From: an uncultured delta proteobacterium
GTDB lineage: Bacteria; Desulfobacterota; Desulfomonilia; Desulfomonilales; Desulfomonilaceae
Length of the DNA: 64,000 bases
Direction of reading: 5' to 3'
NCBI GenBank assembly: GCA_963789265.1
Contig: CAWBKB010000007.1
Span: forward strand, 320,001 to 384,000
This document shows, one piece after another, positions 6,943 through 38,570 of this stretch. Each line of letters starts with the position of its first letter. Position 1 is the first letter of the stretch. The notes under the pieces are model-generated. The model was not told the origin of the DNA. It did no database searches and worked only from the letters and a program-made list of their open reading frames with translations. A program made the translations under genes and the position numbers.

Positions 6943-6984
6943 AAGAAAATCCCGCTCCGTGTCGTATGCAATAGGGAGGGATAA
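6943..6984 (+). pseudogene. Last codons of a tyrosine integrase (KKIPLRVVCNREG*)
   Basis: Homologous to the C-terminus RKIPLRLVSNRAG* of the integrase ending at 38483. Confidence 0.8.
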
Positions 6985-6995
6985 TTTATCTTTTT

Positions 6996-7091
6996 TGGCT
7001 ACCCGAGTAGTCCCGCGTTCCGCGGGATCGAATCCCGCCTGATGCGGGATTTCGGCTGAAGCCTCAACCGTTACAACCTAGTGGTCAACAG
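6996..7091 (-). repeat. Degenerate tRNA-Asn 3'-half duplicate (old att site) interrupted by short palindromes
   Basis: tggctacccgagtag...tcgaa...tacaacctagtggtcaacag matches 38495-38537 once the inserted hairpins are removed. Confidence 0.85.
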
Positions 7092-7521
7092 GCATAGGAA
7101 GGAGACATAAAATAACCTAATAGCGCGATGTTGACTTGCCATAACCGTTCCGACCAAGCACGGCATATCAGCATGCTGCATCACCGAAGGTAACAAATTG
7201 GTGACAGATTATAACGTGCCCCTCTCCCCGTACTCAGTTAGGAAAAACCTGAACATGTTCTGAACAAGCAGCGGCGTGGAGAGGCGTGGTCATCCTCGCC
7301 CCGCTAATACGCTTTGCCTGTCCATCCCACAGGGCCGGCTGCGCCTGGAATTAGGGGTTCAATGCGATCTGTTATTTTCGACACATACTGAATCCCCGAT
7401 AAAGAGTTACCCTCGCCACGCTGTAATGATAAAATTAGACTTTCTGTAACAGCTTCTCCTCTGGACATATAGGCCCGTGACGGTATAGCTTGAGCGCAAG
7501 GCGCAAGAGGTCACTTAAGAG

Positions 7522-8400
7522 ATGGGTTCGGAAATTTCTATAAAGTCAGGAATGTCTCGCATCCTGGAATGGTTAGACCACGAGTCGAAAGGTTTCTTGA
7601 TTCTCATGGCAATCCTCTTGGATGTCTTGATTGGGCTACTAGACCTTTTGACTGGGTACGAGATTTCTTTCTCTATATTCTACGTCCTTCCAGTTTTTTT
7701 GGTCAGCCGCTCCAAGGGTCGAAGCGAAGGAGTTTTAATTTGCTTTGTCTGCGCGGGTACGTGGCTGGCCTGTGATCTGACAACCGGCCCTAATTACTCT
7801 CATGTCTGGATACCGTATTGGAACGCATTGGTGCGGTTTTGTTTCTTTCTCACCGTGAGTTTGTTGCTCGTTTCAATGAGACGTTCCGCGGAATCGTTGG
7901 AAGAGAAGTCCAGGACGGACCCTTTGACGGGTGCAGCTAATCTAAGGGGGTTCCTGGAGCGGGCCCAGACGGAGATCGATAGGTCCTGTAGACACAGATA
8001 TACCATTACTGTGGCGTATTTGGATGTGGACAATTTCAAGACAATCAACGATAGCTTTGGCCACAGCGTAGGTGATGAAGTGTTGGCTCGGGTTGCCGAA
8101 CTGATTTCACAAAACATTCGGAACACGGATATTCTGGGCCGTCTTGGGGGTGATGAATTCGCCATTCTCTTTTCTCAGACTGAGCATGAATCGTCTCAAG
8201 GAATTATGATCCGCATAAAGGAGATCCTTTCGGAAGAGATGAGAGTCAAAGGCTGGCCAGTTACTTTCAGTCTCGGTGTCGTGACGTTCGAAGTTCCTCC
8301 CAACTCAGTAGATGAGATGATAAAAAAGGCTGATGATCTCATGTTCTTGGCCAAAAAAAGTGGCAAGGACATGTTGACTTTTGCGACTGTAGCAGGATGA
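7522..8400 (+). CDS. Membrane-anchored diguanylate cyclase (GGDEF)
   Basis: About four N-terminal TM segments; TDPLTG, DVDNFKTINDSFGH, I-site RNTD and RLGGDEF. Confidence 0.93.
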   Translation: MGSEISIKSGMSRILEWLDHESKGFLILMAILLDVLIGLLDLLTGYEISFSIFYVLPVFLVSRSKGRSEGVLICFVCAGTWLACDLTTGPNYSHVWIPYWNALVRFCFFLTVSLLLVSMRRSAESLEEKSRTDPLTGAANLRGFLERAQTEIDRSCRHRYTITVAYLDVDNFKTINDSFGHSVGDEVLARVAELISQNIRNTDILGRLGGDEFAILFSQTEHESSQGIMIRIKEILSEEMRVKGWPVTFSLGVVTFEVPPNSVDEMIKKADDLMFLAKKSGKDMLTFATVAG

Positions 8401-8838
8401 GACCGCTGAGTGTCAGTCACCGGCCTAGGTTTTCTCTTTTCCGACGCCTTTCAGCCTGAATTAAAAGCAACTGCAAATCCCATTGCGGCCAACGAACTAT
8501 CGCTTGCGTCGCCAAAAACCCCGGAGCCGCCGCAAGCACCTTCGCACCGCCCACAAGCCCCACCTCAAACGGCAAAGGTCACCAGCCGCTAGTCAAGCTG
8601 GGTCGGGTCAAGCAACCTGCCGGTGGCAGGTCTAACCCAACAGGCTTGGGCGCGAAGTTCTCTGTGAATCTCGGAGGGATCAAGGAATACGACGGAAGCA
8701 GTAGTTCCGGGAATACGACGATTTATCGTACCCACGCCAGCCACGGGAGGCGTTGATGGGAGAAGACAGTCGAGCGGAAGCGCGGCAACCCCAGCAGCCG
8801 CCGGGTTGAACCGTGAGCCCATCGTCGCCGAAACGGTC

Positions 8839-9393
8839 TCATGCCGGCTCGCTGTTCGCACCTTTGCGCGCAACGGCAACCGAACGTGGTCGTCGAACCA
8901 TGAACCGCCAGCGATGTCCGACGTGGTGCACGATGAGCAAAAGCGATGCGAGGGAGGAGATGTGGTGGGTATCTATCCAGGGATGCCTGGTGTTGCTCGC
9001 GCGCCCGATAACCGCCGGCCCGAATAGCGGAGACGAGCCTTCCAGCACCAACCACGCAACGAGCCCGGTCAACGCTGCAATGAGGAAGGCGGTGTACATG
9101 ATCAATTCCGAATTGATCGGCCTTCTTGTCCATTTGGTAACGATGTTCGGGAACCTGCTGCGGAACGCTCGCCAATGAAGTCCCACGTGCGTCACCGTGC
9201 CGGTTGCCACGACGGCCGCCGAGAACCTATGCAGGTTAAGCCAGAAAAGTTTGCTCTGACCCAAGGCCGAAATGACAAAAGCCCCGTCGCCTATATGAAA
9301 AGAGACGAGAAGCACGAGCCCGGTCGAAAACGTCAAGAACGAGGCGACGAAGAGGATCCAATCCAAAAGTAGGTTCAATTCTTGTCGTTGCAT
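8839..9393 (-). CDS. DUF4405-type cytochrome b-like membrane protein
   Basis: Two repeats of TG...W..(L/T)H......H..(L/H)(H/R)W within hydrophobic helices. Confidence 0.75.
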   Translation of the reverse strand: MQRQELNLLLDWILFVASFLTFSTGLVLLVSFHIGDGAFVISALGQSKLFWLNLHRFSAAVVATGTVTHVGLHWRAFRSRFPNIVTKWTRRPINSELIMYTAFLIAALTGLVAWLVLEGSSPLFGPAVIGRASNTRHPWIDTHHISSLASLLLIVHHVGHRWRFMVRRPRSVAVARKGANSEPA

Positions 9394-10197
9394 TATGATC
9401 TCTTTCCAATCCGTCTTATGGCGTATCCCATGTAGGAACCTTCGAGGTGATCGCTCTCCTGGAAGTCGAGTCGCCGCCCCAGTTCCTTGAAGGAAATCCT
9501 ACCCTGCACGCGGCGGCGGAAGTCCAGCAAGATGGCGATAGGATTGCGTCGGGGCATAATTCCCCGCATTTCGCTGTGTTCGAGACCGTGGCGTTCGAAG
9601 AGAGTGGCCAGTTCGACGGGCTTGATGAACCGCTCCCAAACGTGTGTGTCGGGCGCTGCGAAGGCCGTGGACGGCCACTCCTGCATGACTTTTATGATCG
9701 CTATCTTGCTTATGAACGTCCGATTGATTGTGTCGTAGAAGAACAGACCACCGGGCCTGAGCACCCGCGCAACCTCGCCGATCACGCGATCGACATCGTC
9801 CACGTGCTCGAGGACATCGCAGCAGGCAACATGGTCGAACGACCCTTCCGGAAAGGGCAAGTGCTCGCCAGAACCGGTTTGGTAATCGATGGCGAGCCCC
9901 GATACGACCGCGTGCGCTCGGGCAGTCTCGATGGTCTCGGGCGCTGGATCGATGCCGGTCACCTCAAAACCGACGCGGGCGAACTCCTCGGCAAGCAGGC
10001 CACCACCACAACCGATGTCCAGAAGCTTGCACTTCGCGCGCGATCGCCCGCTCACGGTCGAGCACGTGCTTGAAGTAGCTAAATCTGACCGGGTTCACGA
10101 AGAAGCGGATTGTGCTGAACAGGCCGACGTCATCGTCCCACCAAGCGTGGCCCAGGTGCCGGTAGAGGTCGTTGTCTACTTTCTGCTTCGATTTCAT
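9393..10197 (-). CDS. ubiG: UbiG-like SAM-dependent O-methyltransferase (frameshift near 10045)
   Basis: N-terminus VDNDLY...WWD...NPVRF..F joins LDIGCGGGLLAEE...DVLEHV...LRPGG..FYDTINRT..S. Confidence 0.85.
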
Positions 10198-10217
10198 CAG
10201 CTTCCTTCTCCTCTCTC

Positions 10218-10683
10218 TCAGCGGAGACCCTCTAAGAAAGTGCGCAGCTTCCTGAGGACCATCGCTGCGCTCCGCATCTCCTCGGTGCCGAGCACCGACG
10301 ACAGCGACCGCTCAAGCTCGTGAGTCCGATCGTGGATCTCCTCGAAGAGCCTTTGTCCCTTCGGCGACAGGTTGACGTAGCTGCGTCGGCCGTCCTTGGG
10401 ATCGGAGCGCCGGCGAACGAGCCGTTCTCGTTCCAGCACCTTCACTTGGCGCGTGACCGCTGCCGCGTTGACGCCAAGCTGGCGGGCGAGGTCCATAACA
10501 CCGACGTCGCTCGCAGCCAAGGCCAGTAGCCGCATCAGCGCAAACTGCGATGCCGGCATCCCGATCTTCCGCGAGAATCCGGCCATGAGCATGTGATAGG
10601 CGCGGAAGACTTCTCGAAGGAGGTGTGGCTCGTCACCTCGGTGGTGCAGCTTCTCCAAGGGGGTGGTTTCTCAGCTCGTTCAT
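10218..10683 (-). CDS. MarR family regulator (probable indel in the G-run at ~10660)
   Basis: LARQLGVNAAAVTRQVKVLE and DPKDGRRSYVNLSPKG; ATG at 10683 lies in an adjacent frame. Confidence 0.88.
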
Positions 10684-10689
10684 GCCACG

Positions 10690-10719
10690 ATAGTAGCATA
10701 CATCATTGACATAGTCAAT
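10690..10719 (-). promoter_or_regulatory. Sigma70 promoter with an overlapping palindromic operator
   Basis: Minus strand TTGACT-N17-TACTAT with TG extension; palindrome attgac-ata-gtcaat (10705-10719) covers the -35. Confidence 0.75.
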
Positions 10720-11209
10720 TATATTGTTAAGCATCCCGCAACCTGCCGCCGCCAGGACAGAAGCCGCGCCTGCTTGGACGGCCATCTGTTTCTCGTGGTC
10801 GAGTTCAGGACAATTGGGCAACGGTCGTTGCTTCGTCGCATAACCTGTTCCGTGATCTATGGAATGGCCCGCGACCTTCTTCAGAATTGTGAACATTAGT
10901 GCACTCGTTATGACCGGAGGGCTGCAGAAAATTTTTCCGGAGTCGCCTTTACAACGAATGGTTTCGCAGACGTTGTCCCAACAGGCTGGCTTCGGGATGT
11001 GGCAGTTATCGAAGGCGCATCTGGTATGATTTTGGTTGCCGGTTACGTGGTCACCTAGTGAGGAAGTATGTCGATAGATAAGGTCGTTTTGTATTTTCTA
11101 TAGGGATATGGGTATATGGGTCAAGTCTACTCTTGGCTCATGTCTGAATCACCTAACGTGGTCCGGACATGAGCCGTAAACAGCCCCACCCCGATCCACA
11201 AACCTTGTG

Positions 11210-11257
11210 CTGAGACGAAAAATCCCGCTCCGTGTGGTTTCCAACAGGGCGGGATAA
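11210..11257 (+). pseudogene. Last codons of a tyrosine integrase (LRRKIPLRVVSNRAG*)
   Basis: 14/15 aa identical to 38436-38483; the nucleotide differences are mostly synonymous. Confidence 0.88.
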
Positions 11258-11268
11258 TTTATCTTTTT

Positions 11269-11313
11269 TGGCTCCCCGAGTAGGACTCGAACCTACAACC
11301 TAGTGGTTAACAG
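11269..11313 (-). repeat. tRNA-Asn 3'-half duplicate (att site)
   Basis: 43 bp (11269-11311) identical to 38495-38537. Confidence 0.95.
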
Positions 11314-12224
11314 ACGCAAATTTAGGGAAGAATTATAATAATTTCAACAAAGTTTGTCGGAACTCGTTGCAAAAAAAACAGCACTGTCCATAACCGTCCA
11401 CGACTCATTCCCGCAAATGTCCCGCACAGAAAGTTACATGATATTTTCAAAAGTGAGGTGCGGAAGTTTCGTTGCCCCAGGGAACTCCAGCGCGACAGGC
11501 CGAATTGGGCTTCAATAAAACCAACCACTTACCGGAGAACATCAGTCATTCCAGTCCATCAGGATCCTTCTCAGTCCTTTTCAATTCCCGGGGTTCCGCA
11601 AGTTGGCGACAAGATGTGAGACAAAATTAAAGATGCCTGACTGTTACACAATATCAAGACCTATAAGGAGACGGATTTACCACGACAATGTGAGCCGCCA
11701 TGACCGCGGCACGGCCGACTGCTCACCAGTTGCAGATGGTGATGCTTACTCGTTTCGAAACCTTTAAGGAGCTTATTACGGTGTCGGCCCTTATTGACAT
11801 TTCCCACAATTGCTCCCTCGAGCCAACGCGGAGTGCGGCCGTGAGTCGATCGTGGCTCGGCTCTTTCAGTAATTTCATCTGCATCAATTCTAGGCTGTTC
11901 GTTATGTCTGGTTCCCTATCACTCCGACACGGAACTACGTACGTAACCCCACCTTGAAATACAATGGCTGTTTTCAGCAAATACATCCTTCGCTGTATTT
12001 ACGGCTCCTTGCTCCTCTGACATCGTAAAAATACGAAATTCACAACTACTAATAACCAGTAGAAGTAATTTGACCTCCAATTGAAGGCCCGGCGTATCCC
12101 GATCGTGGTGAGCGACATGAAAGCTGCCTAAAACCCGGAGAGGCGGACTCCAGCATGTTCCGTGTGGCAATAAACGTGGCCCCGCAAGTGCGGGAGCTGC
12201 CATCTGGTTATCCAGGAGGGCAAG

Positions 12225-13319
12225 ATGACTGCGAAGGTGTACTACGACCTGCGTGAACAGTTAGATCAGTATTCCATGGGATTTCCTTCAACCGAGTCCG
12301 GGGTTGAAATAAGGATCCTGGAAAAGCTTTTCTCCGAAGAGCAAGCTGAGCTGTATCTCAATCTCACCCTTGTGCCTGAAACGGTCGAAGAGATAGCCCG
12401 GCGAATCGGCCGACCGTCAGGCGAGGTGGCCGCCCTGCTGGACCGCATGGTCGACAAAGGCCTCACATTTCGGGCCAAGGAAGGAGACACTGCCAGATTC
12501 CAAGCGGTGCCCTTTGTTATCGGTCTTATCGAATTTCAGATCAAAGACATGGACAAAGAATTGGCGGAACTATTCGAGCGATACCTCTTGGAGGCTTTCG
12601 GCAAGGAGGTGGTAGCTCAAACACTCCCGTTAAGAACCGTGCCGGTCAACAAGTCGGTTGACCGTTTGTGGCCGGTGGCGCCGTACGACGACGTGAAGAG
12701 AATTTTTCAGACCGAAGACAAGATCTCTGTAACAAACTGTATATGCAGAGTGCAGCAGGGTCTTTTGGGCAAGCGATGCGACAAACCGTTGGAAGTGTGC
12801 TTCATGTTTGGAAAATACGCTCAGTACTATGTTGACAAAGGCATGGGGCGTTTCGTCACTCAGAAGGAAGGTCTTCAAATAATTGACAAGTGCGACGAAT
12901 ATGGCCTCGTCCCCCAGCCGTTCATTGCTAAGGAAGCAGGTGTGCTCTGCAACTGCTGCGGAGACTGCTGTGGAGTTCTGCGTTGCCTAAAGATGCACCC
13001 CAAACCCGCAGAACGGGTCCTGACCAATTACTACGCGGCCGTTGACCCAGATGCCTGCTCCGCATGCGAGACCTGCACTGACCGCTGCCAAATGGAAGCC
13101 ATTAAAGTAGGAGTTGATGAAGTGGCCAAAGTGGATCGTGACAGATGCATCGGTTGTGGTTTGTGTGTCACCACTTGTCCTAGCGAAGCTGTTTCGCTGC
13201 GATTGAAGCCGGAATCCGAACGCCAAGAACCGCCCGAAACAGGAGAAGATTACATCTTAGAACTGGCCTTGGCACGAGGGAAATCCGTTATCCCTCTCGC
13301 TATATCAACAAAATCCTAG
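12225..13319 (+). CDS. 4Fe-4S ferredoxin-domain protein with N-terminal helical domain
   Basis: CICR, CNCCGDCC, CSACETCTDRC and CIGCGLCVTTCP motifs; AGGAGG RBS. Confidence 0.9.
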   Translation: MTAKVYYDLREQLDQYSMGFPSTESGVEIRILEKLFSEEQAELYLNLTLVPETVEEIARRIGRPSGEVAALLDRMVDKGLTFRAKEGDTARFQAVPFVIGLIEFQIKDMDKELAELFERYLLEAFGKEVVAQTLPLRTVPVNKSVDRLWPVAPYDDVKRIFQTEDKISVTNCICRVQQGLLGKRCDKPLEVCFMFGKYAQYYVDKGMGRFVTQKEGLQIIDKCDEYGLVPQPFIAKEAGVLCNCCGDCCGVLRCLKMHPKPAERVLTNYYAAVDPDACSACETCTDRCQMEAIKVGVDEVAKVDRDRCIGCGLCVTTCPSEAVSLRLKPESERQEPPETGEDYILELALARGKSVIPLAISTKS

Positions 13320-13685
13320 GGTCGATCCTAGTTCCCAATTACATGCCTAACAGGCACACCACGTTTTCAAGCGATGAAGGTGAACAGTGGTGAGGACATT
13401 GCCAGGATATCTAGGAGCGTCCCCGTAGTTGAACAGCTACGACATCTAGAGATGTCCTTTGGGGAGGATTCCTTATGTAGGCATTACAGACCGATCGGCC
13501 CAAGAATTTTCCACAAATGACCATATATCAGAAGATTAACCCGATCCGCACCGCGGGGTCCTATATAGGCTTTCAGGAAGTCCGATTTACGTCCAGGGGA
13601 GTCAAAATAATGCACTCCTCAAAGAAGCTTTTGCTGGGAAGGGACTTCAATTCGGTTACTGCTGCGGAAAAGGGGAGGCATCCTC

Positions 13686-14489
13686 ATGTCGGCTATAGAG
13701 TTGCCCCATAACTCTCCTCTCATGTTCGAGGAAATAGAACCAGGTCTCGGCTTGGTCACCATGAACCGGCCTGAGAGACTCAACGCGCTCAACATAGCGA
13801 TGGTGGAGAGCTTCGAAGCCCTTTCCAGAGACCTCGCCGGTAATGATGACATTCGAGTTCTCATACTCATCGGTTCAGGGCGGGGGTTTTGCGCGGGAGC
13901 GGACCTGGTTGAAGTGGCCGCTCGTTCAGGTGATGAGGAATTTGCATCAGGGGACAAGTTTCTGCGCTTGGTGCAGCAAAGGTTTTCCAATCTCGTCCTA
14001 GCTTTCCGGCAGATTCCTCAGCCGGTAATTGCGGCGGTGAACGGACCATCTGCCGGCGGCGGATTCGCACTGGCCCTGGCGTCTGACATCCGCATAGCCG
14101 CCCCCGAAGCATATTTTTTGGCGTCCTTCATCAATATCGGCCTTTCGGGCGGAGAGATGGGAACCTCATATCTTCTGCCCCGCCTCATAGGCTTGTCTCG
14201 CGCATCGGAGATCCTCTATTCGGGCAGGCGTGTCGGGGCTGCTGAAGCGGAACGAATCGGCTTGGTGACCAAGATTGTACCGCTTGAGGACCTCCGTGCC
14301 GAGGCCATAGCTGTGGCACGAACGATGATGGATAAGAGCCCCAGCGGGCTGATGCTCACCAAGCGGGTCTTGAATGACAACGCTGCCGCTTGTTCGCTTG
14401 CCGCGGCCATGGAACTGGAAAACCGGAACCAAACCATAATGGTGTTTTCCAACGAATTCTTTAAACGAGTGAACGCATTTGTGAAGTAA
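13686..14489 (+). CDS. Enoyl-CoA hydratase/isomerase family protein
   Basis: MNRPERLNAL, FCAGADL, PVIAAVNGPSAGGGFALALASDIR. Confidence 0.93.
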   Translation: MSAIELPHNSPLMFEEIEPGLGLVTMNRPERLNALNIAMVESFEALSRDLAGNDDIRVLILIGSGRGFCAGADLVEVAARSGDEEFASGDKFLRLVQQRFSNLVLAFRQIPQPVIAAVNGPSAGGGFALALASDIRIAAPEAYFLASFINIGLSGGEMGTSYLLPRLIGLSRASEILYSGRRVGAAEAERIGLVTKIVPLEDLRAEAIAVARTMMDKSPSGLMLTKRVLNDNAAACSLAAAMELENRNQTIMVFSNEFFKRVNAFVK

Positions 14490-14597
14490 GAAACGTTTCA
14501 CAACCCGATGCATCGGCAAATCCGGTCCTTTAGGAGCTTTGGCCGTAGAGCTTGAACGTGGGTCCGCGAAAAACCTAAACAGTAGGAGGAAATAGCG

Positions 14598-15425
14598 GTG
14601 GAAAAGATGCTGGATGGAAAGGTGGCCATCATCACGGGTTCAGGAAGGGGCATCGGGAGCGCTGCAGCGCTCATGTTCGCCAGGGAAGGGGCGAAGGTCG
14701 TTGTCAGCGACCTCGATGCAGAGCCTGCTGAACAGATCGCGGCTGACATCAAGAGTGCCGGAGGTGACGCGATCACTTTTGTCGGCGACGTAACCGACCC
14801 TGGTTTCGGCGACGGCATCGTCAGAGCAGCGGTTGACTCATGGGGCGGGCTCCACATCATAGTAAACAACGCGGGGTTCACCTGGGATGCGCTCATCCAC
14901 AAGATGGACGACGAGCAGTGGGACAAGATCATTGACCTCCACCTGAAAGCGCCGTTCCGACTTATTCGAGCCGCCAAACCGTACTTCTGCGATGCAGCTA
15001 AACAAGAAGCAGGGGAAGGCAAGAAAGTAGCACGCAAGATAATCAACGTGTCTTCCGTTGCCGGAGTCAGCGGCAACGCCGGCCAAGCGAACTATTCCTC
15101 GGCGAAGGCCGGCATCATGGGATTAACCAAGGCAATGAGCAAAGAATGGGCGCGATATAACGTCCAGGCCAATTGTGTGGCCTTCGGATTCATTGATACG
15201 CGTCTCACCCAGGAAAAGGAAAAGGGGATTTCTGTTGAGGCAGGCGGCCAACAGATTGCCGTCGGTGTGCCCAAGTCTCAGCGAGACATCTTCATCAAAA
15301 TGATCCCCATGGGTCGGCCGGGCACGCCTGATGAAGCAGCAGGAGCAATCATGTTCTTCGCCTCCCCAATGTCGGATTACGTTTCCGGGCAAGTGCTGGT
15401 GGTGGGTGGCGGCTTCTCGATGTAA
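14598..15425 (+). CDS. SDR family 3-oxoacyl-CoA/ACP reductase
   Basis: TGSGRGIG, NNAG and YSSAK motifs; GTG start with AGGAGG. Confidence 0.93.
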   Translation: MEKMLDGKVAIITGSGRGIGSAAALMFAREGAKVVVSDLDAEPAEQIAADIKSAGGDAITFVGDVTDPGFGDGIVRAAVDSWGGLHIIVNNAGFTWDALIHKMDDEQWDKIIDLHLKAPFRLIRAAKPYFCDAAKQEAGEGKKVARKIINVSSVAGVSGNAGQANYSSAKAGIMGLTKAMSKEWARYNVQANCVAFGFIDTRLTQEKEKGISVEAGGQQIAVGVPKSQRDIFIKMIPMGRPGTPDEAAGAIMFFASPMSDYVSGQVLVVGGGFSM

Positions 15426-15460
15426 TGGCACCACACGATGAGCCATGAAAGGAGTACGAA

Positions 15461-16298
15461 GTGGCGCTCGATCTTAATGTGATGGGCATAAAATCAGATC
15501 CCATCGCGTTCACCTACACCGAAGACGATGTGATCCTTTATGCCCTTGGCGTCGGATCTGGAGCCGAAGAACTCGACTTTGTTTACGAAAAGAATCTCAA
15601 GGTACTGCCAACTTTCGCGGTGATACCCTTGATGCCCATTATTTTCCAATTCGTAGAAGCGGCCAACGTTAATCTAAAAGGCTTATTGCACGGTGACCAC
15701 AAGATCGTGCTGCACAAGAAAATTCCCAGAAACGGAACTATGTATAGCAACTGGCAGTGGACGTCAGTGTATGACAAGGGTGACCGAGGTGCTTTGTTCT
15801 CGCTTCACTCTGAAACTAGAAACGAGAAGAGTGAACTAATCTTCGAAAACTTTCTCACCGGTTGGGACCGCACGGCGGGTAATTTCGGTGGAGAGCCAGG
15901 GCCCAAGAACGAAAAACGAGTGCCTCCCTCCGGAGTAAAATCGGATTTCCGAGTCGAATACCGGACTTCACCCAGTCAAGCGGCTCTCTACCGACTAAGC
16001 GGTGACAAGAACCCTCTGCATATCGATCCGGAGTTTGCCAGGAAGAGCGGTTCTGGAAGAACCGATCCTCATGGGATTGTGCACGTACGGCTTTGCCGGC
16101 CGGGCCGTATTGCACAGCGTGTGCGGAAGCGACCCGGCACGGTTCAGATCGTTATCTGCGCGGTTCACCGCTATGGTCCTGCCGGGAAACACCTTGATCA
16201 CCGAGGGATGGAAGGCGGAAGGCGGGACATACATCATTCAGTCCAAGACACAAGACGGACGCATCGTCCTAGACAACGCCACGGCCGAAGTAGCGTGA
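15461..16298 (+). CDS. MaoC-type (R)-specific enoyl-CoA hydratase (frameshift near 16050)
   Basis: YALGVG, LPTF and LYRLSGDKNPLHIDPEFA, then PILMGLCTYG in the next frame. Confidence 0.88.
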
Positions 16299-16313
16299 GG
16301 GAGGTGAGTTAGA

Positions 16314-17460: not shown

Positions 17461-17483
17461 TCGGAAAATGCAGGCAACGAAGA

Positions 17484-28325: not shown

Positions 28326-28330
28326 TTCTC

Positions 28331-29455: not shown

Positions 29456-29533
29456 GCTTGCCTCCTTGAGTCATTTGTTATGCCTTGCTTGTCAACCAGT
29501 CATTCGGTTTTCATGTTTGGCTCTCCTCGACTC

Positions 29534-29775: not shown

Positions 29776-29881
29776 AACCTCGTTTTGTCTGGCTGAACAG
29801 CCTTATCGCCGTGGACGTTGCTCGTGTCCTTGTTTCGATTCACGAGATAGAAATACCGTCATCATCCAGGCGGCGGAGCCT

Positions 29882-31364
29882 TCATTTAAGGATCTGGTAC
29901 CAGGGTTTGACAGCTTGGCCTGTCAGATCCAGATAGATATGTTTAGTAACTGTGTATTCTTCCAAAACCATTGTGGACAGATCCTTGCCCCATCCGGACT
30001 CCTTGCAACCTCCCCACGGCGTCTCGCAGAATAATATGAGATGCTCGTTTACCCACACTGTGCCGGCTTTGATCTGGGAAGCTGCCACGAGCCCCTGCGG
30101 AATATTCTTGGTCCATACCGAAGCGCACAAGCCATAGGGCGTGTCATTGGTAAGTGCAACCGCTTCTTCCAAAGAACTGATCTTCACTAATCCAACTACA
30201 GGACCAAATATTTCCGATCTCATGAATTCCATGTCATTGGTACAGTTGCCGAAAACAGTGGGCGTAACGAAATATCCATTCCGAGTCTCCGGTGTATTCG
30301 GACGCTCTCCTCCGCAAAGCAGTTTTGCCCCACTTTTCTTTGCAGATTCCACGAAGGACTCGATTTTGTCCCTGTGGGCCCGGGTACGCGACCGGCCCCA
30401 AAACTGTAGCGGGGTCCATCGGATCGCCATAAGGTAGAGTCGAAGCGGCTTTCGCTAGTTTTTCTGCAAATTCGTCATAGATAGATTCGTGGATATAGAA
30501 CCGGCTTGCCGCAGCACATACTTGACCGCTGTTGAAGAAGGCTCCGAAAACAGCCCCCTCCACTGCAGAATCAACATCTGCATCCGGCAGAACCACAAAG
30601 GAATTCTTTCCACCCAGCTCAAGTCCCACCTGTTTGACGCTGTCACTTGCGATGCGCATTATGCGCTTGCCGGTCGCCGTATCGCCTGTGAAACCTATCT
30701 TGGCCACTTTCGGGTGTCGTACGAGAGCTTCTCCGACTATGTCTCCGGCGCCGGTAAGGACGTTTACCGTGCCCGCGGGCGCTCCAGCTTCTACAAAGAT
30801 CTCTGCAAGCTTGAGAGTGGTCAAGGGTGCAACGGACGGAGGCTTTACGATGCACGTGTTGCCGGTAACGAGGGCGGCTCCCAGTTTCCAAACCACCATC
30901 AGAGCAGGGAAGTTCCACGGAGTTATCAAACCGACCACTCCGTGCGGCTCACGCACAGTCATCGATAGACACCATGGACCGACAGGCAAAGTCTCGCCGG
31001 TCAATGACCGTGCAATACCTGCGAAATACTCCAATTGTTCAGCGCACATGGGCACATCGAAATTCATCGTTTTACGTATAGGGGACCCCTGCTCTGCAGT
31101 TTCGAGCATTGCAAGGGCCTCCTGCTGTTCCATGATCAGTTTGGAAGCTTTGTAAAGTATCTTAGAGCGATCCGTCATCGTGCGGGCTGCCCAGCCCGGC
31201 GCTGCTGCCTCTGCAGCCTGGACGGCAGCGTCCACATCGGCAACTCCACATTTGGGGACCGTACCAACCACCTCTCCATTCGCGGGGTTGGTGACTTCGA
31301 AAGTTTCACCGCTTGCGGAGGATACCCATTGACCTCCGATGAGAACCTTGTAATCCTCTGCCAT
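29882..31364 (-). CDS. NAD(P)-dependent aldehyde dehydrogenase (frameshift near 30380)
   Basis: ITPWNFP, FTGD, LELGGK, NSGQVC, EIFGPV and PWGGCKESG. Confidence 0.92.
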
Positions 31365-31408
31365 TTTGCTCTCCTTTATCGGCGCTGGAGCAACATCTTG
31401 GCGCTAAC

Positions 31409-31814
31409 TCATCTTCCAGACGAGCCTTCCAAGTTCTGCCCTTGAGAGCGCCGACCAATGAGGGTTTTTGACATCTTCAGCAGCTTCCAGAGATTTCCTC
31501 CAGCCCTAATCTTTCCTCTGATAAGGGCCATAATCGGCCCCACCTGGCCGCTGCTAAGCTCCGAGAGTTCTTCGAACCCGGCTTCCAAGTACGCGGATGG
31601 CTTGTTTATGGCCTCGTTTTGTATCTGTATATCACCTTTATTAAAAAACAAGCTGACCGCTATTCCGGTCCCGGCTTCCCTAACCACAAGAGTCCCATTT
31701 AAATTTGCAGTGCTTGCCCGTACCTGGTGATCACTGAGGGTTCTGGTCCATTACTTGTTTGATCACTACACCCAGGCCATTAAGTTCATTGCCGATTACC
31801 TGCACTTCTGTCAT
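31409..31814 (-). CDS. SCP2 sterol/lipid-binding domain protein (frameshift near 31738)
   Basis: MTEVQVIGNELNGLG... joins ...PIMALIRGKIRAGGN. Confidence 0.75.
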
Positions 31815-31995
31815 GCCTCGCTCCATTCGGACCCTTTGGCAGGTCAGGGGAAGGACGCCACAAAGTTGAGCGCTGGACGAGCCAGGAGGGCGAGGGGCCA
31901 GATGGCTGAGGCCCACCGTAAGAGCCGACCGTCTCGGCTCTGAAGCTCGTGTATCGTTGGCGCTGGAAAGATTCCCTGCCAATTGAAAAAACCGC

Positions 31996-32421
31996 CTATT
32001 CACCAAGATAGGCGGCTTCAAAGAGGGTAAATGAATTAGCCACCGCTCGAACGAATTTGGCGTTGCGCATAATCTTAGACATGTCACCCTTGACCTTGAA
32101 AAGACCCCGGACGACACCTTCAATAAAATCCTTGTCCCCTTTTATGACCTCTTTGAAGTCCGGATAGGCTCCTGTCACGTAGAAACCCGGATCTAATCCC
32201 GAAGGATCCTCAACCATTCGGGATGCCGAGCATGTCCCGGCCTTCGATTCCATATAGAGATAAGTCGTTTCGTCCAGTCCTCCGCCTGGAGTAATCTCAA
32301 AGACAAAGTTTCCGTTAAAGTCTGCTCCCCAGTTTTTCCCATTCTCTTGAACCGCTTGGCTGTTGTTCATTGCGATCTTCCAAGCCTCACACCATTCTTG
32401 CGACGGATACAAAACTGCCAT
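31996..32421 (-). CDS. SCP2 sterol/lipid-binding domain protein
   Basis: YPSQEW N-terminus; G..D.IEG...G..KVKGDM..IMR C-terminus. Confidence 0.88.
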   Translation of the reverse strand: MAVLYPSQEWCEAWKIAMNNSQAVQENGKNWGADFNGNFVFEITPGGGLDETTYLYMESKAGTCSASRMVEDPSGLDPGFYVTGAYPDFKEVIKGDKDFIEGVVRGLFKVKGDMSKIMRNAKFVRAVANSFTLFEAAYLGE

Positions 32422-32468
32422 GAGTCGTCTCCTTTCTATTTATTTGCCGTAGCGCCCTGAATGAGCAG

Positions 32469-33729
32469 CTACAAAGTTTTCAGATCGTACCAGTATCTGG
32501 CGTTCTCCAGGGTCTTCAACCCTTTTCCGCCCATCCAGAGCCCCACAACCTTCTGGTCTCGCCAATGCTTTTCAATGCCAAACTCCCTGGCATAACCATA
32601 GGAGCCCATAAAATCCATGGCCCGGCTGCACGCACGCTCGACTGCGTTATTGGCATGCAGAGCAAGGCCTCTAGACTTGAGGACGAATCGATCATCCCAC
32701 GGGTCCCATCCATAAATATCCGGGCGATCCATTTCCCTGGCGTATTGCCACATCCAGGCGGAAGTTGATTCTATGAGTATGGCTATCTCCGACAGCATGT
32801 CCGCACAAATGCTGTGCTCCTTCAGCGGTTTCCCCGCGATAATTCTTTCCGTGGTCCACTTCTTGATGATTTCATAGACGTTCTTCATGATGCCAACGGC
32901 CATGGCGGCTGATCCTACGTTTCCCATGGAGATTGCCCGTTTCCAGGTACTTAAGATCATCACCCGGGCCATGCAGCCTGTATCTTTTTGGAACTCTCAC
33001 GTGATCAAACCAGATGTCGGTGTTCATGTCTGCTGACATGCCGCATTTCTGGTATGGGTTACCTACCGAAACCCCTTGGGTTTTCGCGGGAACCATGATC
33101 AGGGCAAAATCATTCGGGTCCGTAGACCCTTTCTTGGTCGTGCAGACTACTGTGTACAGATCTGCGACTTTCCCCGAATTTGTTGGCCATATTTTGTGGC
33201 CATTGACGACCCAGTGATCGCCATCAGGCGTCGCGGTCGTTTGTATTGTCTTGCCACGCATCCGGCCGATATTCTCAACATCTGATCCGCTGGAGGGCTC
33301 TGTCATGGCATGACAACCCATGTACAGTTCGTCACCGCAAAACTTTGGTCCAAACTCCATGCAAAGCTCCATATTGCGGTGCGGTTTAAGGAGCGCCGGG
33401 ACAAATCCCCAGATGGAGCAAATGCAGGCAGTGGCAAAACCAGAGTCAATTCTGGCCAACTCCTCTACGATGACGCAGCACATAGTCATTGGCTCGGGAA
33501 TGTCCGATCCTCCGGCCTCAGCGGGGAAAAATGCCCCGTTGAGCCCGAGGTCCACGAGGACTTCCTTTAGAAGGGGTTTAACGATCTTGTGTTCTTTCCA
33601 ATCCTCGTCCACCTGCCCCCTGATGGGCATATATCGCTCTTCTCCCCACTTCCTGAGAGCTTTGCCCATGTCTGACACAAAATCTGAAACCCACTCCTTC
33701 GGACGAATAAAATCGTCTATCGTAGGCAT
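32469..33729 (-). CDS. Acyl-CoA dehydrogenase (frameshift near 32945)
   Basis: EELARIDSG, AMTEPSSGSD, NGHKIWPTN and MGSYGYARE..IEKHWRD. Confidence 0.9.
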
Positions 33730-33987
33730 TATGTCCTCCTGTCCCAGGTCTCGCAAAGAAACGAGACATAGGTGGCTAGTCCCGTCGGGACGACGAGTAA
33801 AGGTTTCAATTCTGGAACTACCCTGCCTCTTGGACCGTAGATTCGCAGATAGGAAAAGAACGGTGAATACGTCGAAGTTTGTATTTTTTGAAAAACAACC
33901 GCTGTATTTATAGGTGGGCTTTCAATGTAGACGGGCCGGTTCGGCGGCTGTCGAGCAGTCGAGGTTTAGGGTGGTGATTTACCGTGT

Positions 33988-34002
33988 TGGCATTATCATT
34001 GC
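33988..34002 (+). promoter_or_regulatory. Possible sigma54 -24/-12 element
   Basis: TGGCAT-TATCA-TTGC in the long intergenic region. Confidence 0.3.
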
Positions 34003-34525
34003 GCTAACAGCCTGACGCACTCAAAGGGCCTTCGGTCAGAGGCACCACGAGATATGAAGATTGCTCCAAAGCAACCCTCATGTTAGAGCCTCGTGGCGTA
34101 GCCATCATGGTCTCGCCTCTCCCGGTGATCCGCACGCGGCTGTACGTGCAGCAAAATGACTTCAACCAGCGCCGCAATCTTATCTCAAGCGGGCGATCCT
34201 TGGGGCAGCAAGACGAACTTGCACCAGGCTGGATTTTGGAACTGCCTCCGTGCTGTGCCCCGGCGCGCAATGCCCAAAATTCAATGTGTCCTGCCATGAA
34301 TACCCCTCAGCGGGCGCGGGTCGAAACCAACTCTTGTCGTCTTTATTTTACTTGTGGCCTTTGACGTGTTATATTAGCCAAGCCAAGTCATGGCTATTAA
34401 CATAGCACACCATCGGTGATCTACTGGCGATAGGCTCCCGGTCGGCGTTCTTGCAAAAGAAGCTTCCGCGGGCTGTTCATAGCACCTCACTCGAAAAATG
34501 ACGGCCTCATGCTGAGGACCATAGG

Positions 34526-35182
34526 ATGCGGCGAACTCACCGGATTGTAGTAGCGGAAGATCATACTATAGTCAGGGAAGGGTTGCGGGCATTGCTCGGT
34601 TCGGATCCGGATTTCGAAATTGTGGGAGAGGTAGCAGACGGCTGGGAGGCCATTCAGTCTGCCGAAAACCTGGAGCCGGACATTGTATTGATGGACCTTT
34701 CCATGCCAAGAATGCATGGCATGGAGGCTATGAGAGAAATTAAGAAGCGATGTCCAAAGACAAAGATATTGGTATTGACAGTTCACGACAATGAAGAATA
34801 TGTTCTCGCCGCTCTGGAGGCAGGGGCCAATGGCTATATTTTGAAGCACGCGACCAGTGCCGAATTAGTGACGGCAATCAAGACGATTTTATCGGACAAG
34901 CAATACTTGAGTCCTGCGATTTCCGGGATAGTGATAAAGGGGTATTTGGACGCAAAGAAAAATCCCGCCCCCGAATCAACATGGGATACGCTCACCCAAC
35001 GCGAAAGAGAGATTTTGAAGCTCATAGCCGAGGGTTACAAGAACAAGGAGATTGCAAATTTCCTTTGTATCAGCATAAAAACTGCTCAAAAGCACCGCGC
35101 GAACCTCATGGAAAAGTTGAATCTTCATAACGTCGCAGGCTTGACGGCCTTTGCCATAGAAAGAGGGCTTGTCCGCAGATAG
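34526..35182 (+). CDS. NarL/LuxR family response regulator
   Basis: AEDHTIVREG, DLSMP, and LTQREREIL...HRANLMEKL. Confidence 0.95.
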   Translation: MRRTHRIVVAEDHTIVREGLRALLGSDPDFEIVGEVADGWEAIQSAENLEPDIVLMDLSMPRMHGMEAMREIKKRCPKTKILVLTVHDNEEYVLAALEAGANGYILKHATSAELVTAIKTILSDKQYLSPAISGIVIKGYLDAKKNPAPESTWDTLTQREREILKLIAEGYKNKEIANFLCISIKTAQKHRANLMEKLNLHNVAGLTAFAIERGLVRR

Positions 35183-35183
35183 A

Positions 35184-37208
35184 TCAAGTTTCACTTTCAG
35201 GCCACGAGGCCCGGACCACCGTTCCTTTCCCCCTGACCGGTTCTATGGAAAAAGATCCTCCGGAAAGTTCCGTCCGTTCTTTCATGCTAGCCAGGCCGAG
35301 TCCTTTTCTGTAATTTTGTGCAGAGCCGGATGGATTTAGATCGAATCCCGCACCGTTATCTTGGATGACCAATTCTATTCTGCCGTCCGTTTTTTGGAGA
35401 CAGAGGCGTACGGAATCAGCCTTACTGTGTTTGACGACATTGTTCAGGGCCTCCTGCAACACCCGGAAAAGAACCGTTTTCAGGCGTTCAGGCACTTGCT
35501 CTTCCGCCACCTCAATTTCTTTTTCGATATGCATGTGGGAATATATCGCCTGTAATTCCCGACAAAACCACATAATGGTGGGCAAGATTCCTAGATCATC
35601 CAGAATAGAGGGACGCAAGTCCATCGAAATTCTTTTGACCTCTTTAATGGAGTGTTGAACCAGAGGGATGATAGATTCCAATGACTCTATAGGGCTTACA
35701 ATCATGCCGTCATACATTTGTTTGAGTGTATTCTCCAACTTAAATTTGAAACCTGACAGGATTTGCCCAATTCCATCGTGCAGTTCTTGAGCGACTCGCT
35801 TTCTCTCCCTTTCCTGGGCTGTTAGCAACTGGGCAGAGAGCAATCGCAGTTGCTGTTCCGATTTTGCCAGCGCCTCCTCGGTGCGCTTGCGCTCGGTGAT
35901 GTCTAGACCTAGTCCCACAAGATATGTTTTACCAGCCAATTTTACGCGAACCCCTGAAAAGAAGTAAGGGATGCCTTTGCCGTCTTTTGTGAGGAGATTC
36001 GCATCAGCAAACGCTTTGCCATTAATTAAAATCTGTTCAACCTTCTGAGCCACAAGTTTTTTGTTCTCGGCGGCGATGAAATCAAGCTCTTTCATTGCTG
36101 ACAACTCTTGGGGCAAATACCCAGTGATTTCTTCAAAAGGTCTGTTCCACCTAATGAGACGGCCCTCCAGGTCGAAAAGGTAAAAAACACCTGGCAGACT
36201 ATTTATGACCGCATCGGTAAAATCTTTTTCTTTTAGGAGTCTTTCTTCTATTCGCTTACGCTCGACGATCTCCAGCAGGAGCTGTTCATTTGCTCTCTCC
36301 AGCATCTCAGTGCGCTCTTCTACCGTTCTCTCGAGGTGCTGGCGGTGGCTTCTCAACTCATCTTCGATTTGCCTACGCCTGGTGATGTCGCGTCCAATAC
36401 CCCGAAAACCAGTTTTAAGGCCCTGCGGACCCCTTATTGGGGACACGGATAGCTCAATACACCTTTTCGCTCCATCCTTTCTAATAATTTCCCAACGAGT
36501 TGCCGGCACCGGCTTCCCGGTTTTATAGACCTCATTGAAGGTGCGGTAGGCTTGTGCGGCGTAATCCTTGTCAGTAAATTCCGCATAATTCTTGCCCATC
36601 AGGTCGTCTTCATCATACCCGACAATTTCGCACAGCGATTTATTGAAGAACTTGAGATTTCCGTCAAGGTCCACCTCGTAATATCCATCTTCAATGCTTT
36701 CAACAATCATTCGGTATCTTTCTTCCGATTCTCGCAGGGCCTCCTCGACACGTTCGAGTTCAGTCACGTCAAGCAGATTGCCGACATTTGCAGGCTTCCC
36801 CATGTAAGTGGCGTGACCTCCTCCTATGTCAACCCGGATGGTTGAGCCGTCCTTTTTGAGTAGCCGAAAAGCGTAGCGTGTTGGGTGAACCTCGGCCTTT
36901 TCACGTGCTAGGCCTCTCCGCTTTACTAAGGCTCTGTCGTCAGGATGAACCAACTCCCAGAACGGCCGCCCCAGGATTTCCTCAGCTCGGCTATAGCCTG
37001 TAATTTCCAAGAAGCGTGGGTTCACGTACTTGAACCGCCCCTTTTGGATTATATAGATCCCCGCCAGCGAGTTCTCGATCGGTATACGGTACTTTTCCTC
37101 CGACTGCCGGAGCGCGGCTTCGAGCTTCTTCAGGTCGGCAGTCTCTTTTTCTAACTCTCTGACCCTTCGTTCCAATTCCTCGTAGGATGGCTTCTTCTTC
37201 ACGAGCAT
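35184..37208 (-). CDS. Multi-PAS HisKA_3 sensor histidine kinase
   Basis: Three PAS/PAC blocks; ERERKRVAQELHDGIGQ, QEALNNVVKH, DNGAGF and GLGL. Confidence 0.95.
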   Translation of the reverse strand: MLVKKKPSYEELERRVRELEKETADLKKLEAALRQSEEKYRIPIENSLAGIYIIQKGRFKYVNPRFLEITGYSRAEEILGRPFWELVHPDDRALVKRRGLAREKAEVHPTRYAFRLLKKDGSTIRVDIGGGHATYMGKPANVGNLLDVTELERVEEALRESEERYRMIVESIEDGYYEVDLDGNLKFFNKSLCEIVGYDEDDLMGKNYAEFTDKDYAAQAYRTFNEVYKTGKPVPATRWEIIRKDGAKRCIELSVSPIRGPQGLKTGFRGIGRDITRRRQIEDELRSHRQHLERTVEERTEMLERANEQLLLEIVERKRIEERLLKEKDFTDAVINSLPGVFYLFDLEGRLIRWNRPFEEITGYLPQELSAMKELDFIAAENKKLVAQKVEQILINGKAFADANLLTKDGKGIPYFFSGVRVKLAGKTYLVGLGLDITERKRTEEALAKSEQQLRLLSAQLLTAQERERKRVAQELHDGIGQILSGFKFKLENTLKQMYDGMIVSPIESLESIIPLVQHSIKEVKRISMDLRPSILDDLGILPTIMWFCRELQAIYSHMHIEKEIEVAEEQVPERLKTVLFRVLQEALNNVVKHSKADSVRLCLQKTDGRIELVIQDNGAGFDLNPSGSAQNYRKGLGLASMKERTELSGGSFSIEPVRGKGTVVRASWPESET

Positions 37209-37494
37209 CCCTCCAAATCATTCTCGTAACCCATTGGTTCAACTAGCTTCTCACTTCGTTGGCCCTGCTTTATGCCGATGTCAAACAGAGCGCTTGCCTG
37301 TAAGCCGAACCCTCACTTCCATTTATAACGCTGTGGAACAAGACAGACAAATATATTGATTTTGTAATCGTCTACCCCAATCCCTCCGTTCTTCATACGG
37401 GCGCGGAACCCGTTCCAGAGGATTGCATCTATTTGTTCTTCCGGCGGGCTTGATAGGCTAGTCGGTGCCATTTATCTTCTGTCTCAGGGCAGGA

Positions 37495-38483
37495 GCCCTA
37501 CTTAGCACACATAACGGAAGAGATCCGACAAGCTGAGGTCTACGGGGGTCAGGCCAAAGAGGAAATTTATGCAGGCCGCAACAAAGTACCCGAACGAGTG
37601 TGAGAGAGCTTCTCTAGACAAGGACGCCTGGTGTCAGAAGAGAATCATGCTATTCATTGGAGATCTCACCTTAGAAAACGTTCACAGGGGAACCTTGAGG
37701 CCCTACATTGAACACGGTCGAAGACAGGGATGGAAGAGCAGGACCGTCAACATGCCGCTCGAAGTTGGCAGACACATTCTCAATCTGGCTGCGGGTGAGT
37801 GGCTCGACGAGAATGGTCTGACGTGGTTACAGTCAGCCCCGAAGATTCGGCTGCTCTCAAGATCTGACGCTCGGGAACCATACCCGCTTTCCTGGGATGA
37901 GCAGGAGAAACTCTTTGCTGCTCTTCCTGAGCATCTGAGGATGATGTGTTTCTTCGCAGTGAACACCGGCCTCAGGAACAAAGAAGTCTGTGGGCTGCGA
38001 TGGGATGATGAAATCGAGATCCCGGAGTTGGAAACCAGCGTGTTCATCGTTCCCAAGGAGCGGGTCAAGAATCGGGAAGATCGCCTCGTGGTGCTCAACC
38101 GAGTGGCCAAAGCAGTTGTGGAGCGACTCCGCGATGATCATCCTGTGTGGGTGTTCACCTACAAAGGATCTCCGATGCAGAGCATGTACACGACTGCTTG
38201 GAGAGAAGCGCGGGAGAAAGTGGGACTGCCCTTCGTGCGAATCCACGACCTCAAACACACTTACGGGCGGAGGCTTCGGTCAGCCGGGGTGTCTTTCGAG
38301 GATCGTCAGGATCTGCTCGGGCACAAGTCGGGGAGGATCACGACGCATTATTCCGCACCCGAGTTGATCAACCTTATACAAGCTTCGGAGCGGGTTTGCA
38401 GCCGCAATGGGTCCAAATTGGGTACAGGCGTTACACTGAGACGAAAAATCCCGCTGCGGCTTGTTTCTAACCGGGCGGGATGA
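37495..38483 (+). pseudogene. Tyrosine recombinase/integrase, 5'-truncated
   Basis: NTGLR, HDLKH, LLGH and THY motifs; the upstream off-frame YLAHITEEIRQAEVYG shows the gene once extended further 5'. Confidence 0.88.
38444..38481 (-). terminator. Intrinsic terminator for tRNA-Asn, inside the integrase 3' end
   Basis: Minus strand atcccgc...gcgggat followed by a T-run. Confidence 0.65.
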
Positions 38484-38494
38484 TTTATCTTTTC

Positions 38495-38570
38495 TGGCTC
38501 CCCGAGTAGGACTCGAACCTACAACCTAGTGGTTAACGGCCACCCGCTCTGCCAATTGAGCTATCGGGGA
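38495..38570 (-). tRNA. tRNA-Asn (GTT), 76 nt with encoded CCA; position 33 is C
   Basis: tccccgatagctcaattggcagagcgggtggccGTTaaccactaggttgtaggttcgagtcctactcggggagcca folds as a cloverleaf. Confidence 0.95.

Follow-up and report, generated by a model that had tools for sequence, protein, structure and literature searches.

The stretch of DNA analysed in the present study (64,000 nt, hereafter the window) belongs to an uncultured delta proteobacterium of the Desulfomonilaceae (GenBank assembly GCA_963789265.1, contig CAWBKB010000007.1, positions 320,001 to 384,000 of the forward strand) and contains a tRNA-Asn gene accompanied by direct repeats, each of which joins the 3' half of this tRNA to a sequence resembling the end of a tyrosine integrase gene. 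The tRNA-Asn(GTT) gene is the only tRNA gene detected in the window and the only tRNA-Asn among the 48 tRNAs detected by ARAGORN in the 6.06-Mb, 9-contig assembly. A repeat search of the window revealed a 102-nt direct-repeat family with three copies (A, B and C); copies A and B are 92% identical, and the ungapped alignment of copy C (6937-7038) gives 67%. The features on which the argument depends are as follows, including a miniature inverted-repeat transposable element (MITE) at copy B.

38495..38570, minus strand: intact tRNA-Asn (GTT), the integration target (ARAGORN; Rfam tRNA, 65 bits)
38436..38537, plus strand: copy A, with tail 38436-38483 (stop TGA 38481-38483), spacer 38484-38494 and tRNA 3' half 38495-38537
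37443..38483, plus strand: tyrosine integrase of the 27-kb island, 5'-damaged (Pfam, homologue lengths, tblastn and three-frame reading)
11210..11311, plus strand: copy B, with orphan tail 11210-11257 (stop TAA 11255-11257), spacer 11258-11268 and tRNA 3' half 11269-11311
11118..11195, plus strand: MITE abutting the orphan tail of copy B, left terminal repeat complete and right degenerate, standing in for the rest of the integrase gene
6937..7091, plus strand: copy C, with tail 6937-6984 (stop TAA 6982-6984), spacer 6985-6995 and the tRNA half in two pieces

Each unit begins with 16 codons, the last of which is the stop; a T-rich spacer of 11 nt follows, and then a 43-nt tRNA-Asn 3' half that reaches to the anticodon loop. 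The tRNA half of copy B is identical to the gene (38495-38537) at 43 of 43 positions, and that of copy C is split into 6996-7010 and ~7061-7089 by a palindromic insertion of ~50 nt (~7011-7060). Two independent sub-patterns, drawn respectively from the tail and the tRNA part, matched exactly these three sites apiece, against chance expectations of 0.08 and 0.00. The three-copy unit proposed in a first-pass annotation of this DNA was thus confirmed, with the start of copy C moved from 6943 to 6937 and its end retained at 7091, and the additional copies envisaged to the left or elsewhere were not found when all three copies were searched against all 9 contigs by blastn-short.

Several lines of evidence link the tails to integrase genes. 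First, the tails of copies A, B and C translate as LRRKIPLRLVSNRAG, LRRKIPLRVVSNRAG and LEKKIPLRVVCNREG, respectively, each followed by a stop codon. Between tails A and B, 7 of 48 nt differ, with one residue change (Leu/Val) and the stop retained, and this degree of constraint was equalled by just 0.3% of random 7-substitution sets in a simulation (P ~0.003); these two tails evidently diverged under coding constraint. Over the last 13 codons, tails B and C differ by 5 nt, with 2 residues changed, and no significant constraint was detected (P = 0.13). Second, in an alignment of 28 homologues, the nearer members end in ...LR(R/K)K(I/N)PLR(L/V)V.N.AG, as do the three tails of the window, and the more distant members have other C-terminal ends. 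The integrase family is large: of 8000 scored candidates, 6462 proteins reached E <= 1e-10. This shared motif, together with the different sequences at unoccupied same-genus sites described below, establishes the tails as the conserved C-termini of a large clade of tyrosine integrases, in agreement with the first-pass annotation.

Third, a gene of this clade ends in copy A. The open frame 37569-38483 carries a Phage_integrase domain (PF00589, E = 2.2e-20; Pfam), and R136, H226, H230, H252 and Y261, which we take to be the catalytic residues, are invariant in the 28 aligned homologues. This frame encodes 304 aa compared with 365-368 aa for the homologues. Using the full-length homologue P0002 (368 aa), tblastn recovered residues 34-368 in two frames and did not find residues 1-33 in the window. 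Three-frame reading placed a frameshift in a G-run near 37545-37558 and revealed that ~52 nt are gone from the N-terminal domain, between the PAGLIG/GAIYLLSQG pieces and YLAH, and that a start codon is absent at the expected place. The frameshift alone could be an assembly error; the ~52-nt gap and the absent start could not. The seemingly intact integrase beside the tRNA is itself 5'-damaged and, in its predicted translation, is without an N-terminal domain. Since even this integrase has lost that domain, the whole array is probably fixed and immobile.

The position of this integrase is typical of its clade. In a survey of 80 named loci, a convergent (opposite-strand) tRNA lay within 400 nt past the integrase stop in 62; the gap between stop and tRNA ranged from -38 to ~100 nt, and the tRNA was invariably on the opposite strand. 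The target tRNAs in these 62 loci were Met (15), Arg (14), Thr (8), Phe (8), Lys (5), Pro (4), Gln (4), Asn (3) and Leu (1). The closest named relatives of the integrase are from Desulfomonilaceae metagenome-assembled genomes, and further members of the clade are found in Hyphomicrobiaceae and in Gammaproteobacteria, Legionella records among them. The genome of the window contains a comparable array at tRNA-Phe (array coordinates C1:1460744-1461340 and C1:1546200-1547393), in which a full-length integrase adjoins the tRNA and, 86 kb off, a truncated integrase (residues 186-363) is followed by a tRNA-Phe 3' half. A third integrase of the clade adjoins tRNA-Lys (C1:2554193-2555326). The full-length paralogues at tRNA-Phe and tRNA-Lys have other tails and 55-59% identity. 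Another distal arm of the island family was observed on C8 near 107630. A 19-nt motif, TCCCGCAAAAGTCCCGCAC, has just 5 genome copies (<=2 mismatches), at window 11409-11427, C1:1461449, C1:1547232, C1:2554261 and C8:107771, each located either towards the 3' end of the coding sequence of a family integrase or ~100 nt inside the far end of an island; these copies are candidate arm-type integrase binding sites.

The tRNA-Asn region was compared in 60 related genomes (designated G, with genera g and loci L), and the island side was retrieved for 16. Among the loci examined, 21 genomes with an intact tRNA-Asn entered the tally of tails, and the ATCCCGC..GCGGGAT tail directly follows tRNA-Asn in 13 of these; other hairpins occupy this place in 7, and the last genome (G007) has an integrase remnant beside tRNA-Asn with the hairpin mostly deleted. 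In two genomes of the same genus (G006 and G004), the site is unoccupied and tRNA-Asn is followed by an AGCCAGG..CCTGGCT hairpin. The same native-type hairpin precedes the outermost tRNA half of G002, 9.7 kb from the tRNA, as would be expected of the leftover of a first integration into a virgin site. These comparisons demonstrate, for the genomes examined, that the tail is not the native flank of the tRNA, and the possibility left open by the first-pass annotation, namely that relatives lacking any island carry the same sequence downstream of tRNA-Asn, was not borne out. It has to be considered whether the tail is nonetheless a native tRNA-Asn terminator copied into the attachment (att) sites, with a fortuitous open reading frame (ORF) and no integrases lost. 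A hairpin with a T-run, located 11 nt past the tRNA on its own strand, and a conserved stem with slight covariation are compatible with this explanation, which is nevertheless very improbable given the different hairpin at the unoccupied sites and at the outermost repeat of G002, the conservation of the tail peptide in homologues, the nearly always silent differences between A and B, and the integrase remnants of 35-92 codons that precede many such tails in relatives.

The order of events is best resolved at the end nearest the tRNA. In G001, a genome of the same genus with an 88% identical flank, a B-type tail stands directly beside the intact tRNA-Asn and the 27-kb island is absent; the sequence is 97% identical to the window over 151 nt, including 47 nt upstream of the B tail. 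Contigs of the public run X2 show the same arrangement. Since G001 has the B junction beside an intact tRNA without the 27-kb segment, this segment, herein called island Y, represents the newest layer, and Y entered a tRNA-Asn already backed by unit B. The chronological order suggested earlier is thus upheld at this end, whereas units B and C need not record the events of this lineage alone. Displaced copies of the unit occur at or near tRNA-Asn in seven further genomes (G002, G003, G013, G023, G031, G033 and G055). Two other arrangements were observed in the related genomes. In G004 (G004:C3:23645-24525; L007 and L024), tRNA-Asn is inverted relative to the conserved flank, with reversed att-type copies beyond it, as though the DNA between att copies had been inverted. 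Tandem pseudo-tRNA-Asn copies were present in L033 (G018:C46, 152-950) and L025 (G006:C15, 19450-19640), in which a CCCGCC..GGCGGG hairpin replaces the 5' strand of the anticodon stem and some copies have an insertion in the T-loop.

Truncation of the integrase with retention of its 3' end is common at this site. Among the 13 genomes with the tail beside the tRNA, tblastn with P0002 identified a full gene in 3 (G003, G033 and G031), a near-full or damaged gene in 2 (residues 16-367 in G005 and the two-frame gene of the window) and remnants in 8. The remnants comprise residues 291-368, 308-368, 316-368, 323-368 and 325-368, and three were too short for tblastn (G001, G002 and G019). The displaced copies in relatives span a similar range of states: one nearly full integrase and one 35-codon remnant were observed in G033, and short tails in G013, G023 and G003. 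In one further locus (L029 of G031, 9976-12668), the displaced integrase is interrupted by ~1.6 kb between probe residues 99 and 92, probably by an insertion element. These results indicate that integrase genes of the clade have been truncated recurrently at this tRNA, each time leaving a 3' remnant, and they support the earlier proposal that integrases were lost and their tails kept.

The possibility that the repeats are an artefact, that is, a mis-join or duplication in a long-read metagenome assembly, was weighed against assembled contigs of four public runs over 2000-21999, a stretch too short to span island Y. Copy C is spanned by a 562-nt contig (6612-7174; 1 mismatch, 1 gap) that extends into unique DNA on both sides and comes from run X1, possibly the run of the source sample; no contig bridging copy B was seen among the pieces listed. 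The assembly has 6% contamination, and at 3342, 6898, 10672, 16051 and 16464 the window is one base longer than short-read contigs nearly identical to it, with two runs in agreement at the last two positions. These two properties are the points in favour of an artefact. On the other side, the copies differ from one another (A and B by 8%, and C through its insertion), so that they are no collapsed duplicates, copy C is bridged, and displaced copies occur in the seven further genomes. The mis-assembly raised as an objection in the first-pass annotation is therefore extremely improbable. No joint at the att copies indicative of circles or excision was listed in these contigs, in which parts not covered prove nothing.

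Upstream of tail B, integrase similarity may reach ~11195, with 80% identity to P0003 over 20 residues (E = 2e-4 for a search of the window). The 24-nt terminal repeat of the adjoining MITE, GGGTCAAGTCTNCTCTTGRCTCAT, has 28 genome matches, including complete elements of ~82 nt, and repeats of this type are dispersed in relatives, often close to contig ends. The conserved 90 nt upstream of tail B was considered as an integrase remnant or an RNA element and rejected as both, as it corresponds to the MITE. Beyond the MITE lie two further stretches.

7092..11117, no strand assigned: segment X, between copies C and B, encoding a GGDEF diguanylate cyclase, DUF4405, an S-adenosylmethionine (SAM) methyltransferase, MarR and a small ORF (Pfam)
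1..6936, no strand assigned: DNA left of copy C, encoding choloylglycine-hydrolase family, AHSA1-like, AraC and glyoxalase proteins (Pfam), with a MITE at ~3026-3200

The left end of segment X (7092-7208) resembles the far arm of the island family (76% over 137 nt with L039). Between att copies C and B (7092-11209), no integrase similarity was found beyond ~21 codons; like a cis-mobilizable element, segment X is flanked by the att sites of its neighbours and is without a recombinase of its own. No counterpart of segment X was present at the tRNA-Asn site in five same-genus genomes. Unit C recurs with the same ~50-nt insertion, at 84-90% identity, in six genomes, G002, G003, G004, G006 (g1), G015 (g10) and G018 (g13), compared with just 66-73% identity for the coding flanks in the other genera. 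In some relatives a longer integrase remnant precedes the C unit, e.g. residues 326-368 in G006. Since the B and C units are common to several genera, they are to be read, on the evidence of these alignments, as old modules, inherited or transferred, with no fresh decay in this strain. The increasing decay away from the tRNA noted earlier is consequently not private to this genome, as the interrupted unit of copy C is shared with the six others.

The insertion in copy C is built from the palindromic motif TCCCGCG(T/C)(T/C)CCGCGGGA, of which the genome has 84 copies (<=1 mismatch). This motif stands in several repeat contexts, like repetitive extragenic palindromic (REP) elements. A tRNA T-arm origin of the insertion was considered and rejected: the 18-nt motif matched itself only, and the blast matches were not tRNAs. 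Upstream of tail C, 6886-6906 was considered as a possible MITE end; it is loosely similar to a 3030-type terminal repeat, and no other copy was found with <=3 mismatches. The MITE at ~3026-3200 is ~175 nt long with 20-nt terminal inverted repeats (GGGGACACCATACTTAATTC) and has 45 repeat-like genome matches; copies are also present in the tRNA-Asn regions of relatives. In 1-45000, tRNA alone exceeded the Rfam threshold, and relaxing the cut-off to E = 1 for 6700-11500 yielded no credible match.

The DNA of 1..6936 may be cargo of an older island. Comparison of window 1-11200 with five same-genus genomes gave scattered pieces and small repeats only, without synteny, and when the loci of four relatives were searched back against the genome by blast, three had island-side matches and G001 had none, in a mosaic without synteny. 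The count of at least three islands in the first-pass annotation depends on tail C, with no outer boundary found for the third. Similarly, the statement that the cargo of older islands was kept cannot be demonstrated, since G001 shares the B junction and has different DNA on its left.

Herein, we propose that the locus is a tandem array resulting from successive site-specific integrations into the single tRNA-Asn by members of one tyrosine-integrase clade, a history that we consider likely. In this clade the integrase gene runs towards the tRNA, its last 16 codons (stop included) ending 11 nt short of the tRNA 3' end. Each incoming island would restore the tRNA with a 3' half of its own, followed by its spacer and the tail of its integrase gene, and the resident tRNA 3' half, together with its downstream DNA, would come to lie at the opposite end of the newcomer. 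Units B and C would then be junctions of older occupants from which the integrase genes were removed from the 5' side, presumably by deletion, and at B the MITE would sit in the former place of the integrase gene. Two factors might explain why the tail survives. First, deletions would be unable to enter the single-copy tRNA gene. Second, the tail might serve as the terminator of the tRNA as long as it adjoins it, with a hairpin and T-run on both strands.

The second factor is consistent with the predicted structure of the tail. On the tRNA strand, the tail reads as a hairpin followed by a T-run, and in A and B the same is true on the integrase strand. All 26 tails compared fold, with energies from -8.0 to -25.8 kcal/mol and 4-7 T within the next 8 nt, and each has, on the tRNA strand, the G+C-rich hairpin directly before a U-run that characterizes intrinsic terminators; the hairpin of copy C is the weakest of the 26. 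In the 7-bp lower stem, 94% of cells are paired, compared with 35-48% when the partner is slid, and two pairs have compensatory changes. At unoccupied sites this place is taken by a different hairpin. The most economical interpretation is that the island tail replaces the native terminator of tRNA-Asn, and it probably does so. Such a role would in turn explain the survival of the tail, as deletions of the integrase would have to end before reaching the hairpin and the single-copy tRNA.

Several results weigh against the proposed history of local integration and erosion. Three genera (G001, g1; G015, g10; G023, g18) share the B junction of MITE and tail, identically placed, and unit C recurs with its insertion in three genera as well, so that either might be an inherited or imported module and not the product of a local deletion. 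The DNA left of the B junction in G001 differs from segment X, and the outer boundary of the third island was not found by repeat blastn, in the five same-genus genomes or in the loci of relatives. The extra bases in the window belong here, as does G007, in which a remnant stands beside the tRNA yet the hairpin is mostly gone. RNAalifold returned no consensus pairs for the 26-tail alignment, and the median energies of tRNA-adjacent and displaced tails were -20.0 and -18.8 kcal/mol (13 vs 13; Mann-Whitney p = 0.50); the weaker hairpins predicted for displaced tails, as a relaxation after displacement, were therefore not borne out.

In an alternative reading, B and C are the ends of integrase-less modules, cis-mobilizable elements or fossils of composite islands, with usable att sites; they would be moved in trans by a resident integrase of the clade or imported within larger composite islands. 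The stack would then not count integrations in this lineage, and the intervening segments need not be original cargo. The recurrence of the B junction in the three genera, the preservation of unit C in six genomes whose coding flanks have diverged further in the other genera, the different DNA in G001, displaced hairpins as stable as tRNA-adjacent ones, a segment X with a family-type far arm, and full-length clade integrases elsewhere in the genome are all consistent with this possibility. However, the resident paralogues at tRNA-Phe and tRNA-Lys have other tails and low identity (55-59%), and no excised or alternative junction was present in the contigs, which is weak evidence. Furthermore, the conservation could also stem from vertical inheritance combined with gene conversion between neighbouring repeats, and remnants in other genomes range in length from ~15 to 92 codons, a spread that independent deletions would produce. 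Movement as integrase-less modules is unlikely, and successive integration followed by erosion of the integrase genes is the reading retained here.

A related and decidedly tentative idea, which we think doubtful as a whole, is that the last ~50 nt of the integrase gene form a three-way module that encodes the C-terminus, acts as a replacement terminator for tRNA and integrase and is part of a usable att site, the tails persisting as docking ends. If this were true, the host would be forced to keep the tail after the death of the integrase, the MITE-capped or repeat-bearing B and C units would be integrase-less docking ends for later islands or for integrases acting in trans, and a single-copy tRNA would become a self-renewing accretion platform whose tails form a dated record.

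The newest layer itself carries a metabolic cargo.

11312..37442, no strand assigned: island Y (Pfam, NCBIfam); the interval including the integrase, 11312-38494, is 27.2 kb

Island Y is bounded by the tRNA and a direct repeat of its 3' end, encodes a tyrosine recombinase and is absent from the site in G001, as described for tRNA-associated islands; its far arm (11314-11430), which includes the 19-nt arm motif at 11409, is conserved in other islands. The cargo encodes a 4-subunit ATP-dependent enzyme of the benzoyl-coenzyme A (CoA)-reductase/2-hydroxyacyl-CoA-dehydratase family, with two BcrAD/BadFG-type ATPases and two HGD-D subunits, which are nearest to the bzd-type benzoyl-CoA reductase and double-cubane reductase models of NCBIfam and under their equivalog cut-offs. 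It also encodes CoA enzymes of the beta-oxidation type (enoyl-CoA hydratase, short-chain dehydrogenase, MaoC hydratase and acyl-CoA dehydrogenases), a DUF35/thiolase pair, a CoA ligase, a nitronate monooxygenase, an aldehyde dehydrogenase and a two-component system of a PAS histidine kinase and a LuxR-type response regulator. A 13.8-kb contig from an unrelated wastewater run has ~95% identity to the cargo at 11531-21999, so that Y-type cargo occurs elsewhere as well. The split ORFs at 29882-31364 and 32469-33756, corresponding to the aldehyde dehydrogenase and an acyl-CoA dehydrogenase gene, may be assembly errors rather than pseudogenes.

The locus provides a clear stepwise example of accessory DNA gathering at a single-copy tRNA, in which the latest addition is a 27-kb island for anaerobic CoA-ester catabolism, and illustrates the erosion of integrases from the 5' end with the tRNA-side stretch retained. 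If the tail does serve as a tRNA terminator, there would be a selective reason for the frequent integrase stubs beside tRNA genes, and orphan tails might be used as markers to count and order past integrations in metagenome-assembled genomes.

Comparison with known systems places the array among previously described arrangements. In streptococcal accretion, integration beside a resident element yields tandem arrays with common att sites, and the older members, known as CIMEs (cis-mobilizable elements), lose recombination genes and keep att sites. The present array likewise has tandem members with shared att sites and older members without recombination genes; unlike the streptococcal elements, it has no conjugation or mobilisation genes seen at the locus, and it uses a tRNA target in an uncultured lineage of the sulfate-reducer type. 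In archaeal integrases of the SSV type, the attachment site lies inside the integrase gene, and integrase-derived DNA is found at both ends of the element. The overlap between the attachment region and integrase coding sequence is common to both systems; however, the gene is not split here, since the frame 37569-38483 runs to its own stop and the distal tails are older copies with differing sequence. Integration with a split integrase of the SSV type was accordingly rejected.

The closest parallel is provided by the ssrA islands of Dehalococcoides, which are arranged in tandem downstream of a single-copy RNA gene and are each bounded by a repeat of its 3' end (McMurdie et al. 2011, PMC3146451). 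According to passages of the same report, integration genes are missing from some of these islands, for which a fixed or cis-mobilizable state was proposed, and the integrase gene of one relative contains the repeat within it (PMC3146451). Both systems, as far as those passages describe them, thus consist of repeat-bounded tandem islands at a single-copy essential RNA gene. The Dehalococcoides system has a serine recombinase, a 20-bp repeat and tmRNA as the target (PMC3146451), whereas the present one has a tyrosine recombinase and a 43-nt tRNA half, and its repeat extends 59 nt further, into the last codons of the integrase. The passages of that report do not mention integrase-tail scars or a terminator overlap, the words 'remnant', 'truncated' and 'terminator' being absent from them. 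In Klebsiella pneumoniae, asparagine tDNAs are reported as island hotspots (PMC4891358), so that tRNA-Asn serves there too as a repeated site for different islands; the title of that paper refers to several asparagine tDNAs, whereas the single copy present here makes events stack at one place. Tandem islands at tRNA or tmRNA genes have already been described, and the present array is of this known kind and reveals no new one. What is particular to the locus is that the last integrase codons overlap a bidirectional, putatively terminator-like hairpin 11 nt from the tRNA, that orphan tails mark former occupants, and that old shared tail modules are capped by small repeats.

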